This document shows positions 24,893-31,864 of a DNA stretch of 64,000 bases, piece by piece. The notes beneath the pieces are model-generated. The model did no database searches, had not been told where the DNA came from, and saw only the letters and a program-made list of their open reading frames with translations. Source of the DNA: an uncultured cyanobacterium (GTDB taxonomy: Bacteria > Cyanobacteriota > Cyanobacteriia > Cyanobacteriales > CAWCAG01); contig CAWDOD010000002.1 in assembly GCA_963803805.1 (NCBI GenBank), positions 832,001 to 896,000 of the forward strand, written 5' to 3'. The position numbers were made by a program, and so were the translations under genes. Each line of letters opens with the position of its first letter. The first letter of the stretch is position 1.

Positions 24893-26320
24893 TTGATAAT
24901 GATTCAACATTTCTCTTCTAAAAGTTCTCCTTTCCTCAAATTGACAATCTTCTGTTTTTCTTTGCTATTGCTCTTAGGAATGGGCAGTTGTCAAGGAAAA
25001 ATAGGGGAAACGGAGTCTAAGAGTCTTATTGAAGTATTGAAATACGAAGCAAGGCAAAATCGCAAATATGCTAGCCAAGCCCAAACCTATAAAGGATTAG
25101 AAGCAATTCCTAATTTCATTGCGGATTTGAAGGCAGAAAATAAAGAAGTTCGTTCTGCTGCTGCTGTTGCTTTAGGAATCATGGGTGCAAAAGAGCCTTC
25201 AGAAGCAGCAACTTTAGTTCCTCACTTAAAATCAGCTTTACAAGACCCTGAAGCTGTGGTGCGTTACTCCGCAGCCCTTGCTTTAGGAAGAATTGGGGCA
25301 ACTTCTTCTGATCCTGCTGCTATTGTCAAAGTATTAATTACCGCTACTGAAGATAAAAACTCTCAAGTACGAGACTCTGCAACTATTTCCCTAGCAAGAA
25401 TTGGTACAAAAGACCCTTTAGTTATACCAGCTTTGATTGCAGCTATGGAAGATTCAGATGTTGGTGTACGCAGTACTGCAGCAGAAGCTTTAGCAAGAAT
25501 TGGCAAAAAAGATTCTTCGGTTATACCTGGTTTTATTGCTACTTTGCAAGCTAAGCGAGGCTATGTACGCTCTATCGCAGCTTATGGTTTAGGATATATG
25601 GGGGCAGAGGCTTCTAGTGCTATTCCCGAAATTATTGTCGCTTTAGAAGATGATCATCCTAGAGTACGCAGGGCTGCAACTACAGCTTTGGGTAGAATTG
25701 CTAAAGAACCAGTATTAACGGTTCCAGCTTTAATTGTGGCTTTAACCGATGAAGATCAGCAAGTACGTAGCATTGCTAGTTCTTCCCTACAAAAAATCAG
25801 CAAACAAGACTCATCGGTAATTCTTGTTTTGTTAGCAGAACTTAAAAATGAGGATGCTGCTGTACGGCAGGGAGTTGCTACAGCTTTAAAAAGAGTTAAA
25901 GCTGAACCTTCGTTGGTAATTCCTGCTTTGTTAGAAGCTTTAGGAGATAAAGATGAGGGGGTACGTCGCTCTGCGGCCCTTACTTTAGGTAAAATAGAAT
26001 CAAGAAATTCGGCTGTTGTACCTGGATTGGTGACCGCTTTTCGGAAGGAAGATCACCAAGTGCAAGAAAGTGCTAGTCTGGCTTTGCAAGAAATTGGTAG
26101 TTCTGCGACTACTGCAGTTATGCCGATCATTTTCCATTCTAATGGAGAAGTTCGTTCCCGTGCGATCGCCTTAACTTGGCAATTGATTCGCTTACAAGTT
26201 CTCTATTGCACAGCTTTAACTATAATAGTTAGTCTGATAGTTTTCTTAGTTCGCAATCCTCAAATTATTATTAATTTCTTATTTTTGCCCCCAGAAGAAA
26301 CAGTTATCAGTGATCAATGA
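24893..26320 (+). CDS. HEAT (PBS-lyase-like) repeat protein with putative lipoprotein signal and C-terminal TM helix
   Basis: About 10 repeats of the form VPALIxAL.D.D..VR..AA.AL..IG. N-terminal LLLLGMGSC and C-terminal hydrophobic VLYCTALTIIVSLIVFLV. Confidence 0.85.
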   Translation: MIMIQHFSSKSSPFLKLTIFCFSLLLLLGMGSCQGKIGETESKSLIEVLKYEARQNRKYASQAQTYKGLEAIPNFIADLKAENKEVRSAAAVALGIMGAKEPSEAATLVPHLKSALQDPEAVVRYSAALALGRIGATSSDPAAIVKVLITATEDKNSQVRDSATISLARIGTKDPLVIPALIAAMEDSDVGVRSTAAEALARIGKKDSSVIPGFIATLQAKRGYVRSIAAYGLGYMGAEASSAIPEIIVALEDDHPRVRRAATTALGRIAKEPVLTVPALIVALTDEDQQVRSIASSSLQKISKQDSSVILVLLAELKNEDAAVRQGVATALKRVKAEPSLVIPALLEALGDKDEGVRRSAALTLGKIESRNSAVVPGLVTAFRKEDHQVQESASLALQEIGSSATTAVMPIIFHSNGEVRSRAIALTWQLIRLQVLYCTALTIIVSLIVFLVRNPQIIINFLFLPPEETVISDQ

Positions 26321-26333
26321 TCAATTATTAATT

Positions 26334-27983
26334 ATGAAAGAAGATTCTAAGCGGATTTGGCTTTACGATACAACCTTGAGAGATGGTTCTCAAGGGGAGG
26401 GAATATCTTTATCTTTAGAAGATAAATTGAAAATTGCTCGCAAATTGGATGAAATGGGCATTCCCTTTATTGAGGGAGGTTGGCCGGGGGCTAATCCTAA
26501 AGATGTACAATTTTTCTGGCAGCTAAAAGAACAACCTCTTCAACAAGCTGAAGTAGTAGCTTTTTGTTCCACTCGTCGTCCCCAAGTTAAAGCCTCCGAA
26601 GATAAGATGTTACAAGGGATTTTGGCGGCGGGAACCCTTTGGGTAACTATTTTTGGTAAATCTTGGGATCTTCATGTTACAGAGGGTTTGAAGACTAGCT
26701 TAGAAGAAAATTTAGCTATGATTGGCGACACCATTGAGTTTTTGCGAAGCCAAGGACGTAGAGTCATCTATGACGGAGAACATTGGTTTGATGGCTATAA
26801 AAATAATCCTGAATATGCCCTGAAAACTCTACAAACAGCAGTTAAAGCTGGGGCAGAATGGTTAGTTTTTTGTGATACCAATGGGGGGACTCTTCCCCAA
26901 GAAATTAGTGCCATTGTCCGGGAAGTTAGGGCTAAACTAAACTCGACAAATTCTACTCAAACTCCAGCTAAACTTGGCATCCACACCCATAATGACTCTG
27001 GGACAGCCGTTGCTAATGCCCTAGCTGCGGTAGGAGAAGGGGCAACTATGGTACAAGGTACAATTAACGGTTACGGCGAACGTTGTGGCAATGCCAACCT
27101 TTGTACCCTCATCCCCAACTTACAACTGAAACTGGGCTATCAATGTCTTGAGAGTGAACAATTAACTCAATTAACTCCCACTAGCCGCATCATTAGTGAA
27201 ATTGTCAACCTCGCCCCTGATGATAGCGCACCTTTTGTCGGACGTTCTGCTTTTGCCCACAAAGGAGGCATTCACGTCTCTGCGGTGCAACGCAACCCCT
27301 TAACCTACGAACATACTCAACCAGAAGCCATTGGCAATGAACGCAGAATTGTTATTTCTGACCAATCAGGGCTGAGCAATGTGCTGGAAAAAGCCCGTAA
27401 TTTTGGCTTAGAGTTGAACAAAAAAGATCCTGCCTGTAGACAAATTTTAGAACGTCTTAAGGATTTAGAACACCAAGGCTACCAATTTGAAGCAGCCGAA
27501 GCTAGTTTTGAATTATTGATGCGTTCTGCTTTAGCACAACGTCAAGAGATGTTCCAGCTTCAGGGTTTCCAGGTACATTGCGATATGCAAGAGGCGGTTA
27601 ATAAAGGGGATAGCAACGCTTTAGCAACTGTTAAGGTAGCTGTTGACGGTAAAAATATCTTAGAAGTTGCAGAAGGCAATGGCCCTGTTTCCGCTTTAGA
27701 TGCAGCCTTAAGAAAAGCTTTAGTTAAGTTCTATCCCGAAATTGCCGCTTTCCATCTTACTGATTATAAGGTGAGAATTCTTGATGGTGAAGCTGGTACT
27801 TCAGCAAAAACCCGCGTCTTAGTTGAATCGAGTAATGGAAAACAACGTTGGACAACGGTTGGTGTATCTAGCAATATTTTAGATGCTTCTTACCAAGCTG
27901 TTGTAGAAGGTATTGAGTATGGTTTGTTGCTTAATTGTGCAACAACACGAGAACTACTTAAAAGACGATTCTCCTCTTTTTGA
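26334..27983 (+). CDS. cimA: Citramalate synthase (LeuA-like)
   Basis: YDTTLRDGSQGEG, EGGWPGANPKD, FGKSWDLHV, HTHND, GYGERCGNAN and GNGPVSALD motifs. Confidence 0.93.
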   Translation: MKEDSKRIWLYDTTLRDGSQGEGISLSLEDKLKIARKLDEMGIPFIEGGWPGANPKDVQFFWQLKEQPLQQAEVVAFCSTRRPQVKASEDKMLQGILAAGTLWVTIFGKSWDLHVTEGLKTSLEENLAMIGDTIEFLRSQGRRVIYDGEHWFDGYKNNPEYALKTLQTAVKAGAEWLVFCDTNGGTLPQEISAIVREVRAKLNSTNSTQTPAKLGIHTHNDSGTAVANALAAVGEGATMVQGTINGYGERCGNANLCTLIPNLQLKLGYQCLESEQLTQLTPTSRIISEIVNLAPDDSAPFVGRSAFAHKGGIHVSAVQRNPLTYEHTQPEAIGNERRIVISDQSGLSNVLEKARNFGLELNKKDPACRQILERLKDLEHQGYQFEAAEASFELLMRSALAQRQEMFQLQGFQVHCDMQEAVNKGDSNALATVKVAVDGKNILEVAEGNGPVSALDAALRKALVKFYPEIAAFHLTDYKVRILDGEAGTSAKTRVLVESSNGKQRWTTVGVSSNILDASYQAVVEGIEYGLLLNCATTRELLKRRFSSF

Positions 27984-28018: not shown

Positions 28019-29029
28019 ACGTGAGTTCGATGAAGTTAAAAAACAGCAGAAGGAAGTTCAGCTAGGCCTTTGGGGTCAAGGTCAAGGGAAGGCTTTTTGG
28101 GCAAGAAAGTATAAGCGATTAGACCAGCTAAGAGATTAACCAAAAAATTCCAAACGCTACGGTGTCTTGAATGCTGAATCTGACAGATATTCTTGAGCTG
28201 GTCATTAACAGTCTCAATCAGAGAACGCTTACGTAGGAGAATCTTATCCTGAAGACGCATTAACTTCGGCTTCATATTTTTCTTGCGGTGTGTAATCAGT
28301 TGTAGTCTTTGTTCATAGAGTTTCTCAAACAAATCCTGAGAAATATAACCTCGGTCGCCAAATAACTTACCAATCAAGCCATCAGCCATATCTGGCACAG
28401 GGTTACGGTCATCAGTATTACCCTCTGTAAGTTTGAAAGCAAGCAGCTCACCTTTGTCATTAATAATTAGATGTAGCTTGAAGCCATAATGCCATCCCAT
28501 AGCATTTTTGCCCCAACCTACCAAACCTTCAAAAACACGGTGGCTTTTGGAGCGATTCGGGTGGCAGACCTCAATGGGGGTAGAATCAATAAAGCTGATG
28601 CCGGTAATTTCTCCTCGAAGAGTATGTAGAAAACAGCAAAGAAGCATTAAGCTCCACGGCATTAGCTCTACGAATCGAGTGTAACTGACCAAGTTGGGAA
28701 AAGCTTTCTTCCAGTAAGGCAAGACTTGTAGAGTGTAAAATTCTTTAAAAGTGCGAAATCCCGAACCATGAAAGGCAATGACAATGGTCATCACTTCGCT
28801 TAGGCTTAGGCGGGAGCGACATAGACGCTCTCCACAAGTTGCTGTTAACATTGGCTGTTGTTGCCAATGCCTCTCAAACCTTTGATAAAAGTCATCTACC
28901 TGACAGAATATTTGGGTGATATCGAGACGAGATACAATATTGGACATAGCATCAGATTCTGATTAAGATTCATTTTCAGCATACCTCTGATGCTTTTCTT
29001 TTCTCTCTTTTCCTCCGTCGAACTCACGT
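28019..29029 (-). mobile_element. IS982-family insertion sequence, 1011 bp
   Basis: Terminal inverted repeats ACGTGAGTTCGA (28019-28030) and TCGAACTCACGT (29018-29029), flanked by direct repeat TGCACA (28013-28018 and 29030-29035). Encloses an intact transposase. Confidence 0.93.
28036..28947 (-). CDS. IS982 family DDE transposase
   Basis: IFCQVDDF, LSLSEVMTI, FIDSTPI, GWHYGFKLHL, GDRGYIS, KRSLIETVNDQLKN and HSRHRS motifs. Confidence 0.95.
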   Translation of the reverse strand: MSNIVSRLDITQIFCQVDDFYQRFERHWQQQPMLTATCGERLCRSRLSLSEVMTIVIAFHGSGFRTFKEFYTLQVLPYWKKAFPNLVSYTRFVELMPWSLMLLCCFLHTLRGEITGISFIDSTPIEVCHPNRSKSHRVFEGLVGWGKNAMGWHYGFKLHLIINDKGELLAFKLTEGNTDDRNPVPDMADGLIGKLFGDRGYISQDLFEKLYEQRLQLITHRKKNMKPKLMRLQDKILLRKRSLIETVNDQLKNICQIQHSRHRSVWNFLVNLLAGLIAYTFLPKKPSLDLDPKGLAELPSAVF

Positions 29030-29095
29030 TGCACAGTTTTTTGGTAGCTTGAATGGTGCTTAGCAAAGGGATATCACCGGAGTTTGTCTTGGTTT

Positions 29096-29494
29096 TTAAC
29101 TACTCCAACAACCCGAACTCAACAAAATTCCTTGGAATTCCCTGACTCTTTCTAAAGTCATAAAATAAGCCCAAGCTTTACCTAAAAGATTACCTGACAA
29201 ATTGTAGACTTCAACTTGCTGGCGATAATATTCATTTTCTTGCCAGGAAGCTTGAGGATTATAACCTTCTAAACAATCCAAACTTGATAAAATTTCTGGT
29301 TGAGCAAAAGTAAGCAAAAAACCCCTCACTTTACTCTTTCCTGTGGTCATAGCCGGATAGCCCAAGGAAAGATCATAAAGTTCTCCGAAGGTATAAGCTT
29401 CCTGTTGCTCAACAACTTTTTCTACACACAGACGTTGATAGTTTATTTCTCCAGGTTTAAGAGTGCCATAAACGAAGATTCTGATTAGGTTCAC
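29096..29494 (-). CDS. Gamma-glutamylcyclotransferase (GGCT/GGACT, AIG2-like)
   Basis: IFVYGTLKPG, GYPAM and LDCLEGY (catalytic Glu) motifs. GTG start. Confidence 0.9.
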   Translation of the reverse strand: MNLIRIFVYGTLKPGEINYQRLCVEKVVEQQEAYTFGELYDLSLGYPAMTTGKSKVRGFLLTFAQPEILSSLDCLEGYNPQASWQENEYYRQQVEVYNLSGNLLGKAWAYFMTLERVREFQGILLSSGCWSS

Positions 29495-29503
29495 CTTGTC
29501 AAC

Positions 29504-29836
29504 TTAGTAATATTCATCATCATCTAATTCATCGTCGTCGTCGTCATATTCATCATCATCACTCTCTTCATCTAACTCCCCTTCATATTCATCGTCATAT
29601 TCATCGTTGTCATATTCATCATCATCACTCTCTTCATCTAACTCCCCTTCATATTCATCGTCATATTCATCGTTGTCATATTCATCATCATCACTCTCTT
29701 CATACTCATCATCATATTCTTCCTCATCGTCATATAATTCTCCTTCATACTCTTCTGGGGAACCAACTAAATCTCCTAACTTGCTCTTCTTTTTGGTTAC
29801 ACCATTGGTTAAAACCAGTTGCTTGCTTCTGTTCAT
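29504..29836 (-). CDS. Small protein: basic 25-aa N-terminus followed by an Asp/Glu/Tyr-rich repetitive region
   Basis: ATG-started 110-aa ORF ending 9 nt before the GGCT start. The internal 66-bp repeat preserves the reading frame. Confidence 0.7.
   Translation of the reverse strand: MNRSKQLVLTNGVTKKKSKLGDLVGSPEEYEGELYDDEEEYDDEYEESDDDEYDNDEYDDEYEGELDEESDDDEYDNDEYDDEYEGELDEESDDDEYDDDDDELDDDEYY
29543..29703. repeat. 66-bp tandem repeat, ~2.4 copies (encodes EESDDDEYDNDEYDDEYEGELD)
   Basis: Identical units begin at 29543, 29609 and 29675. Confidence 0.95.
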
Positions 29837-29989
29837 GAAATTCTTTAAACAAAATGAATCTATATTTTGCAGATCAAATTTAACTTAAGATTGCTATTAC
29901 TCTCAAGAGCCACTCCTAGGTAATCTGTCAATTTTCAATTGACTGGTCAAGGGCAGTACAAATAAACAAAAATATGGAGAACAAAAGCC

Positions 29990-31567
29990 ATGTCGCGATC
30001 GCCTCTTCCCTCATCTGGGCAAACCAAACAACTTAAACAGCTTCAAAGTCAATTGCGCGATCGCTGGCAAAGTATTGATTTATTCGATCAAGATGATTAT
30101 GACATTTTGGTTATTCCTTCTTTTAGTATCGACCAACGTCAAGGGGAAAAGATTCCTGGCTTTCTGCACTACGAGGAGCGAATGCTTTTTTCTTTAATTC
30201 GCCTTCGTAATCCTTATACCAGGCTAATTTATCTTACTGCTTTACCTTTGTCACCCTTAATTATTGAATATTATTTACAACTTTTACCAGGAATTCCTTT
30301 TTCCCATGCCCGCGATCGCCTCTTATTACTTTCTGCCAATGATGCTTCTTTTAAACCTCTTTCTCAAAAGATTTTAGAACGCCCTCGGTTAGTAGAAAGG
30401 ATTCGCAAAGCTTTGCGTCCTCATAAATCTTACATGGTTTGTTTCAATTCTACTATCTTGGAGCAAGAACTATCTCTACAATTAGATGTCCCTCTGTTGG
30501 CTTGTTCCCCGGATCTTCTCTATTGGGGTTCTAAAAGCGGTAGCCGGGAGATTTTTGCCCAATGTCATATTCCTCACCCCGATGGTACTCCTCAAGTCTG
30601 GAACTCAGAGGATTTAGTCGTAGCGATTAATCAGCTTTGGCAACGTCACCCCAACTTAGCCAAGATGGTAATCAAACTCAATGAAGGTTTTTCTGGGGAA
30701 GGAAACGCCTTATTAGATTTGAAGCAGATGCAAAATTACGCCCCAGGGCAAGCAACTCCCGCCCAAAGAAGTCAAGCTATCAGCAATCATCTGCAAAACC
30801 TACGCTTTCAAGCCCAAGGAGAAACCTGGGAAAACTTTAGGGAGAGTATTAGTAAATTAGGAGCCATAGTTGAAGTATTTATTGAAGGAGAAATTAAGCG
30901 ATCGCCAAGTGTCCAAGGCTATATTACCCCTAGTGGTGAAGTAAAAATTCTCTCCACCCATGATCAAATTCTTGGGGGTGCAGATGGACAAATTTATCTC
31001 GGTTGCCGTTTCCCTGCTGATGCAGCTTATCGTCTGCAACTCCAAAAAATTGGGGCAAAAGTGGGCCATTTCTTGGCTAAAAAAGGGGCTTTAGAACGCT
31101 TTGGAGTTGACTTTATAGCTGTTCAACAACAAGATGGTTGGGAAATGCAAGCCATCGAAATAAACCTCCGCAAAGGCGGTACAACCCACCCCTTCATGAC
31201 TCTCAAACTCCTTACTGGCGGTAACTACGACTTAAGTACAGGTTTATTTTTCAGCCAAGATAAACAAGCTAAATATTACATTGCCACTGATAACTTACAA
31301 AAGGAATCTTACCAAGGTTTATTACCTGCTGATCTTATGGATATCATTGCCTGTCATCGTCTTAATTTTAATAGTAGTAATAGAACAGGTAATGTCTTTC
31401 ATCTTATGGGCGCACTTTCTCAATACGGTAAGTTAGGTCTAATTAGTATTGGCAATTCCTTAGAAGAAGCAGAAACTATTTATAACGAAGTAGAAGCAGT
31501 TTTAGACAAAGAAACCCAGTCTATTAATCCTATCGCCAAGTCTAGTTTGCCTATTACTTGGATGTAA
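29990..31567 (+). CDS. ATP-grasp peptide ligase, PGM1-related
   Basis: HYEERMLF, GSKSGSREIF, VIKLNEGFSGEGN, SPSVQ, STHDQILGG, FGVDF and IEINLRKGGTTHPF (ATP-grasp ExN). Family label recognised from memory. Confidence 0.8.
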   Translation: MSRSPLPSSGQTKQLKQLQSQLRDRWQSIDLFDQDDYDILVIPSFSIDQRQGEKIPGFLHYEERMLFSLIRLRNPYTRLIYLTALPLSPLIIEYYLQLLPGIPFSHARDRLLLLSANDASFKPLSQKILERPRLVERIRKALRPHKSYMVCFNSTILEQELSLQLDVPLLACSPDLLYWGSKSGSREIFAQCHIPHPDGTPQVWNSEDLVVAINQLWQRHPNLAKMVIKLNEGFSGEGNALLDLKQMQNYAPGQATPAQRSQAISNHLQNLRFQAQGETWENFRESISKLGAIVEVFIEGEIKRSPSVQGYITPSGEVKILSTHDQILGGADGQIYLGCRFPADAAYRLQLQKIGAKVGHFLAKKGALERFGVDFIAVQQQDGWEMQAIEINLRKGGTTHPFMTLKLLTGGNYDLSTGLFFSQDKQAKYYIATDNLQKESYQGLLPADLMDIIACHRLNFNSSNRTGNVFHLMGALSQYGKLGLISIGNSLEEAETIYNEVEAVLDKETQSINPIAKSSLPITWM

Positions 31568-31864
31568 TTAACAGCTTAGCTTTACATAATTCAAATTACT
31601 AAATATGACAAAGCTTTGCCGTAAGCCTTGTCAATTGTCCGTAGGCTGTTTAATTGGCTGAGAAATTTAGCCATGAAAAGTAACTTTTGTTACAGAACAT
31701 CTCTGTCTTTAGACCAATAAAAAACTTTCTATTTAAAGAAAGTCATGACTTTTTATAGAGAGCAAGTCAGGGTACTAAGCAGGCTAATGATAGATAAATT
31801 CAAATTGAGATAAAGATATCGTTTCATTATAAATAAACGCAATTAAAAACGAGGAAAGGGTATT

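Follow-up and report, generated by a model that had tools for sequence, protein, structure and literature searches.

The window analysed here is a 64,000-nucleotide (nt) stretch of an uncultured cyanobacterium (assembly GCA_963803805.1, contig CAWDOD010000002.1, positions 832,001 to 896,000, forward strand). At 29096..31567 it carries a short open reading frame (ORF) for an extremely acidic repeat protein, placed between a gene for a GGACT-like gamma-glutamylcyclotransferase (GGCT) and a divergently transcribed gene for an ATP-grasp ligase. These are probably three real genes that do not make up one conserved system: an orphan polyanionic disordered protein next to two unrelated housekeeping-type enzymes. 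As judged from genome comparison, the closeness of the acidic ORF to the GGCT and ligase genes is most likely incidental. An initial annotation of the window had read the trio as the writer, eraser and substrate of a peptide modification. Comparative genomics does not bear this out: the genes are not linked outside one genus, the two enzymes co-occur at chance level, and the acidic ORF is found in that one genus. The layout described by that annotation was recovered in full, including the coordinates, the strands and the 9-nt and 153-nt gaps. In what follows, G000 is the genome of the window, G001 is the other species of the same genus and G002 is the sister genus. The features of the locus are:

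29096..29494, minus strand: GGACT/AIG2-like gene, an ORF of 132 amino acids (aa) with a GTG start
29495..29503, minus strand: spacer of 9 nt from the stop of the acidic ORF to the GGCT start, species-specific
29504..29836, minus strand: acidic aspartate/glutamate/tyrosine (D/E/Y) repeat ORF of 110 aa with an ATG start, ending in DDDEYY
29538..29703: 66-nt tandem repeat within the acidic ORF, 2.5 copies with 99% matches
29837..29989: divergent intergenic region of 153 nt between the acidic ORF and the ligase gene, which lie head to head
29838..29906, minus strand: conserved 5' block of the acidic ORF (69 nt, compared with G001), with a promoter-like site
29990..31567, plus strand: BesA/PGM1-type ATP-grasp carboxylate-amine ligase, an ORF of 525 aa
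28036..28947, minus strand: IS982-family transposase (PF13612, NCBIfam IS982) directly 3' of the GGCT gene, in a rearranged flank

Linkage and co-occurrence of the three genes

Synteny among ligase homologues, the check that the initial annotation had itself named, gave a clear negative. Across 34 ligase-orthologue loci of other cyanobacteria, neither a GGCT (tblastn) nor an acidic ORF (composition scan) was found beside the ligase (0/34 for each). The composition scan took ORFs of at least 40 aa with at least 50% D/E in 40 residues and used the window locus as a positive control; at least 1.3 kb of sequence 5' of the ligase was present in 32/34 of the loci. At 34 orthologue loci taken from public genomes, none of the genes that neighbour the ligase in the window recurs. 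The best neighbour family of the ligase was seen at 7/35 loci, and none is conserved beyond close kin. Viewed from the GGCT gene, the outcome is the same: neither the ligase nor the acidic ORF lies within 1.5 kb of it at any of 28 loci from other genera, and only G000 and G001, of 30 GGCT loci in all, hold both.

The two enzymes are each widespread. Ligase orthologues, at 60-90% identity, are present in 52/61 related genomes as a single-copy, stand-alone gene, and GGCT orthologues are likewise present in 52/61. Both genes occur together in 45 of the 61 genomes, the ligase only in 7, the GGCT only in 7 and neither in 2, where independence predicts ~44 genomes with both. The co-occurrence of ligase and GGCT in these 61 genomes is not beyond chance. 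The two genes are adjacent in 2/61 genomes, and in 14 only one of them is present. Among the 43 other genomes with both, the pair is on different contigs in 38 and on the same contig in five (G006, G008, G010, G013 and G031), at a distance of 1.0-2.9 Mb.

The GGCT gene has a recurrent neighbourhood of another kind. A gene pair for an extracytoplasmic function (ECF) sigma factor and a zf-HC2 anti-sigma factor is convergent to it at 21/30 loci, including the sister genus G002 (for example L040:120-1917, within the series L040-L065). G000 and G001 have this anti-sigma gene elsewhere in the genome. As this neighbourhood indicates, the ancestral partner of the GGCT gene is something other than the ligase or the acidic ORF. 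Because the GGCT has another partner elsewhere and the anti-sigma gene lies apart from it in G000 and G001, the arrangement of the trio is taken to have arisen by rearrangement inside one genus.

Neither enzyme has diverged faster in this genus. Ligase identity to outgroups is 0.70 here and 0.69-0.80 among the outgroups themselves; the corresponding values for the GGCT are 0.53 and 0.48-0.58.

The acidic ORF is a probable young gene of one genus

The composition of the acidic ORF is extreme, and its D/E/Y-rich region, 22-aa repeats and DDDEYY end were all recovered as first described. The 110 residues include 32 D and 27 E (59 D/E) and 13 Y, and the calculated charge of the protein at pH 7 is -53. 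Residues 26-110 are 84% D/E/Y and contain no Lys, no Thr and 4 Ser, and two perfect 22-aa units begin at residues 49 and 71. When the complete 5.3-Mb genome was scanned in six frames, eight ORFs of at least 40 aa reached 60% D/E or more over 30 aa; of these, the acidic ORF is the sole one of the D/E/Y type. Profile scans gave no Pfam or NCBIfam match. In a model of its complex with the ligase, the acidic protein has a low-confidence fold (predicted local distance difference test, pLDDT, <50); with the fold of this partner uncertain, the complex prediction (score 0.00, mark 0.32) speaks neither for nor against binding. Roles as a substrate of tyrosine sulfation or phosphorylation, as a DNA mimic or as a biomineralisation protein were considered and dropped.

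Comparison with G001 gives the ORF the look of a real, young, genus-restricted gene. The G001 orthologue (114 aa, 68% identity) has an intact reading frame. In both species the frame opens at a common ATG, begins with the same 12 residues (MNRSKQLVLTNG) and ends in DDDEYY followed directly by the stop. The first 12 codons differ by two nt changes, both synonymous, and the indels within the ORF (12, 6 and 6 nt) are all in frame. The ratio of nonsynonymous to synonymous substitution rates (dN/dS) between G000 and G001 is 0.37 at a dS of 0.62, a value read from an uncertain low-complexity alignment; it is 0.18 for the GGCT and 0.11 for the ligase. The 69-nt block immediately 5' of the ORF (29838-29906) is 95.7% identical to G001, against ~85% over the entire shared block. 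It contains a promoter-like TTGAGA-18-TAAATT at 29906..29877, a consensus match with identical hexamers in both species, and it was not found 5' of the ligase or the GGCT gene in other genomes. Codon preference resembles that of neighbouring genes. The N-terminus is less uniform than the initial annotation supposed when it described a basic leader: the K-rich stretch is there in G000, but beyond MNRSKQLVLTNG its place in the G001 orthologue is taken by acidic repeat-like sequence.

The frame kept open in both species from a shared ATG, the 12 identical N-terminal residues with synonymous changes beneath them, the stop directly after DDDEYY, the indels that are all multiples of three, the dN/dS of 0.37, and the conserved 5' block with its identical promoter-like site together argue against the view that the ORF is no gene at all but a run of GAT/GAA/TAT-like triplets, repeated in tandem at an intergenic junction and open by chance. 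We regard that view as unlikely. It draws on the low complexity of the stretch, in which two further frames are open (a 93-aa S/Y-rich ORF on the plus strand and a 42-aa ORF in another minus-strand frame), on the lack of a family match and of homologues in searches beyond the genus, and on the fact that the ORF is uncalled in a public protein collection in which the GGCT and the ligase are both called.

Searches for relatives of the acidic ORF returned none outside the genus. By six-frame search, which does not rely on called genes, it is present in 2/61 related genomes, both of this genus, and in 1/401 genomes sampled over the phylum, which is G000 itself; no homologue was found outside the genus in the about 460 cyanobacterial genomes covered. 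A pattern scan of metagenomes matched 591 stretches, of which tblastn confirmed none as an acidic ORF locus. A word-indexed protein search with the ORF as query returned nothing at E <=0.001, and a profile of it had no match among 1.84 billion protein representatives. These empty protein-database searches weigh little because the ORF is uncalled in the collection and such ORFs are perhaps generally uncalled. The ESM Atlas gave no lead for the acidic protein (best scores 0.82-0.83, low recognition). Sequence pieces of X1 were identical to the window; none among the pieces listed spans the repeat at 29572-29674, and they offered no useful third allele. For X2, the repeat gave only short matches of poor quality, and the ligase a few pieces. 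An Rfam scan of the region 28900-30100 produced sub-threshold, chance-level matches only. In the literature, no paper was found on such an acidic peptide or on a cyanobacterial BesA/PGM1-like ligase.

The ATP-grasp ligase and the GGACT-like enzyme

The family assignments made in the initial annotation, a PGM1-related ATP-grasp protein and a GGACT-like protein, are both upheld by profile matches. The 525-aa ligase matches PF24923 (ATP-grasp_IQCH) with 86.1 bits against a cut-off of 27 and PF18105 (PGM1_C) with 32.9 against 22.5. Its closest characterised relative is BesA, an L-propargylglycine--L-glutamate ligase, to which it aligns at E 1.4e-44 (PDB 8yi6, residues 40-505 on 9-458); PGM1 was not among its PDB sequence matches at E <=0.01. 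The score against the NCBIfam BesA model NF042917 is 167.8 bits, far below the equivalog cut-off of 750, and the ligase is therefore a member of the BesA/PGM1 family and not BesA. By homology, it would use ATP to activate a carboxylate, which would then be joined to an amine. The ligase is kept at 60-75% identity across a cyanobacterial order that lacks the peptide, and for this reason its probable substrate is an amino acid or a small molecule of common occurrence. Broken copies of the ligase gene were noted at three places. On a Chloroflexaceae-binned metagenome-assembled genome contig (L032) the ligase was matched in several frames at 49-74% identity, which could reflect mis-binning or transfer; the copy in G049:C80 is in three parts with two TGA codons, and that in L028 has one stop.

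The 132-aa protein matches PF06094 (GGACT) at E 4.1e-21, with 76.2 bits against a cut-off of 22.8 and residues 6-131 aligned to positions 1-119 of the 120-position profile. A search of PDB sequences with the single GGCT sequence gave no match and a profile was needed; the GGCT profile matches YtfP (1xhs) and YkqA (2qik). The segment F7-G15 (FVYGTLKPG) and residues D73, L75 and E76 are invariant in 17 GGCT orthologues and align with YtfP/YkqA; a catalytic role presumably falls to the N-terminal YG(S/T)L motif and to the acidic residue that is conserved within L-D-x-L-E. From its family membership, the enzyme would presumably cyclise gamma-glutamyl amines or peptides to 5-oxoproline.

Genomic context in G000 and G001

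The only parts of this locus that align between G000 and G001 are 29104-29482 and 29504-31568, and both flanks differ. The 20 kb around the locus is dispersed over the G001 genome in blocks of ~1-4 kb. Because synteny blocks between G000 and G001 here are usually 1-4 kb long, a shared block of 2.5 kb is ordinary. Over window positions 19000-41000, DNA of the two species is 85-91% identical and synteny is retained in 1-4-kb blocks only. In G001 the ndhCKJ block adjoins the counterpart of the window's 20.1-22.4-kb segment, so the position of the intervening ~12 kb differs in G000.

Within the shared block, the gap between the acidic ORF and the GGCT gene is 9 nt in G000 and 156 nt in G001, where a terminator-like hairpin stands just before the GGCT start. 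The operon-like spacing, from which the initial annotation proposed an operon of these two genes, is specific to G000. The 153-nt divergent region differs from G001 by a 26-nt indel. This indel coincides with a stretch in the ligase-proximal half of the region (~29924-29956) that has matches of 15-29 nt at more than 20 other sites in the genome, and the stretch may be a small dispersed repeat, to judge from its recurrence.

The IS982 transposase next to the GGCT gene looks intact (PF13612, E 1.3e-72; NCBIfam IS982, 265 bits against a cut-off of 130) and is not at the corresponding place in G001. The wider neighbourhood is a housekeeping set: ferredoxin, DUF1824, aldo-keto reductase, DAHP synthase, Pam68, a HEAT-repeat protein, a LeuA-like synthase, ndhC/K/J, rubredoxin, ycf48, a sulfate permease and a Usp protein. 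No peptidase, exporter or other gene of peptides that are ribosomally made and post-translationally modified (RiPPs) or of other natural products was found within about 10 kb. The gene for the HEAT-repeat protein (24893-26320, 475 aa, N-terminus hydrophobic) and the start of the LeuA/citramalate-synthase-like gene (26310-27983) overlap by 11 nt, and these two genes remain adjacent in G001.

Weighing the alternatives

Several observations pull away from the reading of three unrelated genes. The three-gene block is intact in both species despite their differing flanks, with the reservation that the genus is represented by two genomes in the collection, too few to judge selection for linkage. A pairing of ligase and GGCT would make chemical sense by analogy, in that the product of BesA is, by molecule names, a gamma-glutamyl dipeptide and so of the GGCT substrate class. 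The stop of the acidic ORF 9 nt before the GGCT start in G000 suggests co-transcription, and the peptide and the ligase could share regulation through the divergent 153-nt region. The modification system of the initial annotation is kept in view, at a low probability. In the version weighed here, the ligase would be the writer and the GGCT the eraser; the acidic peptide, a RiPP-like precursor or acidic carrier, would be reversibly modified on its carboxylates or C-terminus, the whole being a genus-specific innovation. This account draws on a pairing that is attractive chemically, of a BesA-like gamma-glutamyl ligase and an enzyme of the GGACT family, which acts on gamma-glutamyl compounds; the retention of the block between different flanks, the 9-nt gap, and the first 12 residues and C-terminal DDDEYY that are invariant between the species also fit it. 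There is a precedent as well, since PGM1 ligates a ribosomally made core peptide, according to PMC8939145. The account is nonetheless quite improbable. Neither linkage nor co-occurrence extends outside the genus, and the ligase is conserved over an order that lacks the peptide, so that its ancestral substrate would have been something else. The ligase and the GGCT show no accelerated divergence in the genus, the K-rich leader is not conserved, and in G001 the gap is 156 nt and has a terminator-like hairpin ahead of the GGCT start. Blocks shared by G000 and G001 are usually 1-4 kb long, and no peptidase or exporter was found within about 10 kb of the trio. With no Lys or Thr and 4 Ser, residues 26-110 would also offer few nucleophiles for cross-links of the graspetide type.

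Two further arrangements were also weighed. The acidic protein and the GGCT might belong together as a two-gene unit, without the ligase, in which the enzyme acts on gamma-linked groups of the protein or the protein regulates the enzyme. Both genes lie on the same strand, 9 nt apart in G000, and are adjacent in G001 too; yet GGCT orthologues do without such a partner at 28 loci of other genera, the gap in G001 is 156 nt with a terminator-like hairpin, and the catalytic-type motifs and the divergence of the GGCT are ordinary, which makes such a unit very unlikely. Alternatively, a housekeeping ligase and a GGACT-like enzyme may have been recruited, in this one genus, to a newborn polyanion, the former adding amino acids onto Glu/Asp side chains or the DDDEYY C-terminus and the latter trimming gamma-linked additions. 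RimK and tubulin ligases, which add amino acids to acidic C-terminal tails, would work in a like manner. We consider such a recruitment very unlikely; if it were true, a writer/eraser pair of bacteria would here be seen shortly after its substrate gene arose. The preferred reading stays that of an orphan acidic gene beside two enzymes with which it has no conserved tie. The second suggestion of the initial annotation, that the peptide is an unrelated metal-binding disordered protein, is compatible with all of these results, with metal binding itself suggested by composition.

Comparison with known systems

The ligase is homologous to BesA over nearly its full length, and the two share an ATP-grasp core and a C-terminal PGM1_C-type domain. 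It differs in scoring below the equivalog cut-off, in having no Bes-pathway genes nearby and in being a stand-alone gene in 52/61 related cyanobacteria.

In butirosin biosynthesis, the ATP-grasp enzyme BtrJ and the GGCT-like BtrG are a pair that protects with a gamma-glutamyl group and then removes it. The adjacency of an ATP-grasp ligase and a GGACT-fold enzyme recalls this pair. Here, however, there is no acyl-carrier protein (neither a phosphopantetheine-binding domain nor any other from Pfam or NCBIfam was matched in the acidic ORF) and there are no aminoglycoside genes, and the ligase and GGCT genes are adjacent in 2/61 genomes only, being at least 1 Mb apart in 5/5 other same-contig cases.

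By composition only, the acidic protein resembles polyanionic proteins such as prothymosin-alpha and the cyanobacterial Ca2+-binding CcbP, in that it is small and has an extreme D/E content. It shows no sequence homology to any family found, and its Tyr-rich 22-aa repeats are peculiar to it.

The pheganomycin enzyme PGM1 links a non-proteinogenic acid with a small core peptide, as described in PMC8939145. The locus resembles that system in the PGM1_C domain of the ligase and in the small ribosomal ORF beside it. In contrast to that system, a peptide partner stands beside the ligase at 0/34 loci, and no amidinotransferase, polyketide synthase or other pathway genes are found here. The likeness to graspetides (microviridin-type RiPPs) lies in an ATP-grasp ligase beside a short Asp/Glu-rich repeat ORF. 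The ligase here comes from another branch of the ATP-grasp enzymes; PMC8939145 calls PGM1 'distantly related'. Behind a conserved leader, graspetide cores pair Ser, Thr or Lys nucleophiles with Asp/Glu, and ligase and precursor are inherited together, often along with an exporter or peptidase. The acidic core, without Lys or Thr and with 4 Ser, the conserved leader of only 12 residues and the absence of co-conservation with the ligase set the locus further apart from graspetides.

Proposed origin and significance

A history consistent with these results can be proposed. In the ancestor of the genus, a rearrangement would have set the ligase and GGCT genes head to head, with the acidic ORF within the junction. 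The acidic gene would be young and genus-restricted, with a conserved promoter-like 5' block of its own. Its product would be an intrinsically disordered polyanion of ~13 kDa whose repeats may expand and contract by in-frame slippage or recombination. Going by composition, the protein would most likely act through bulk electrostatics, either by binding or buffering divalent cations or by sequestering basic partners.

A peptide-modification system at this locus would have meant a new RiPP-like class, and comparative genomics does not support one. What the acidic ORF clearly exemplifies is a gene for an extreme polyanion that is taxonomically restricted and uncalled and that evolves through its repeats at a rearrangement junction. 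In highly rearranged cyanobacterial genomes, synteny should be checked before suggestive neighbourhoods of this kind are taken for operons. The BesA/PGM1-like ligase, conserved over a cyanobacterial order, is a worthwhile target of its own.

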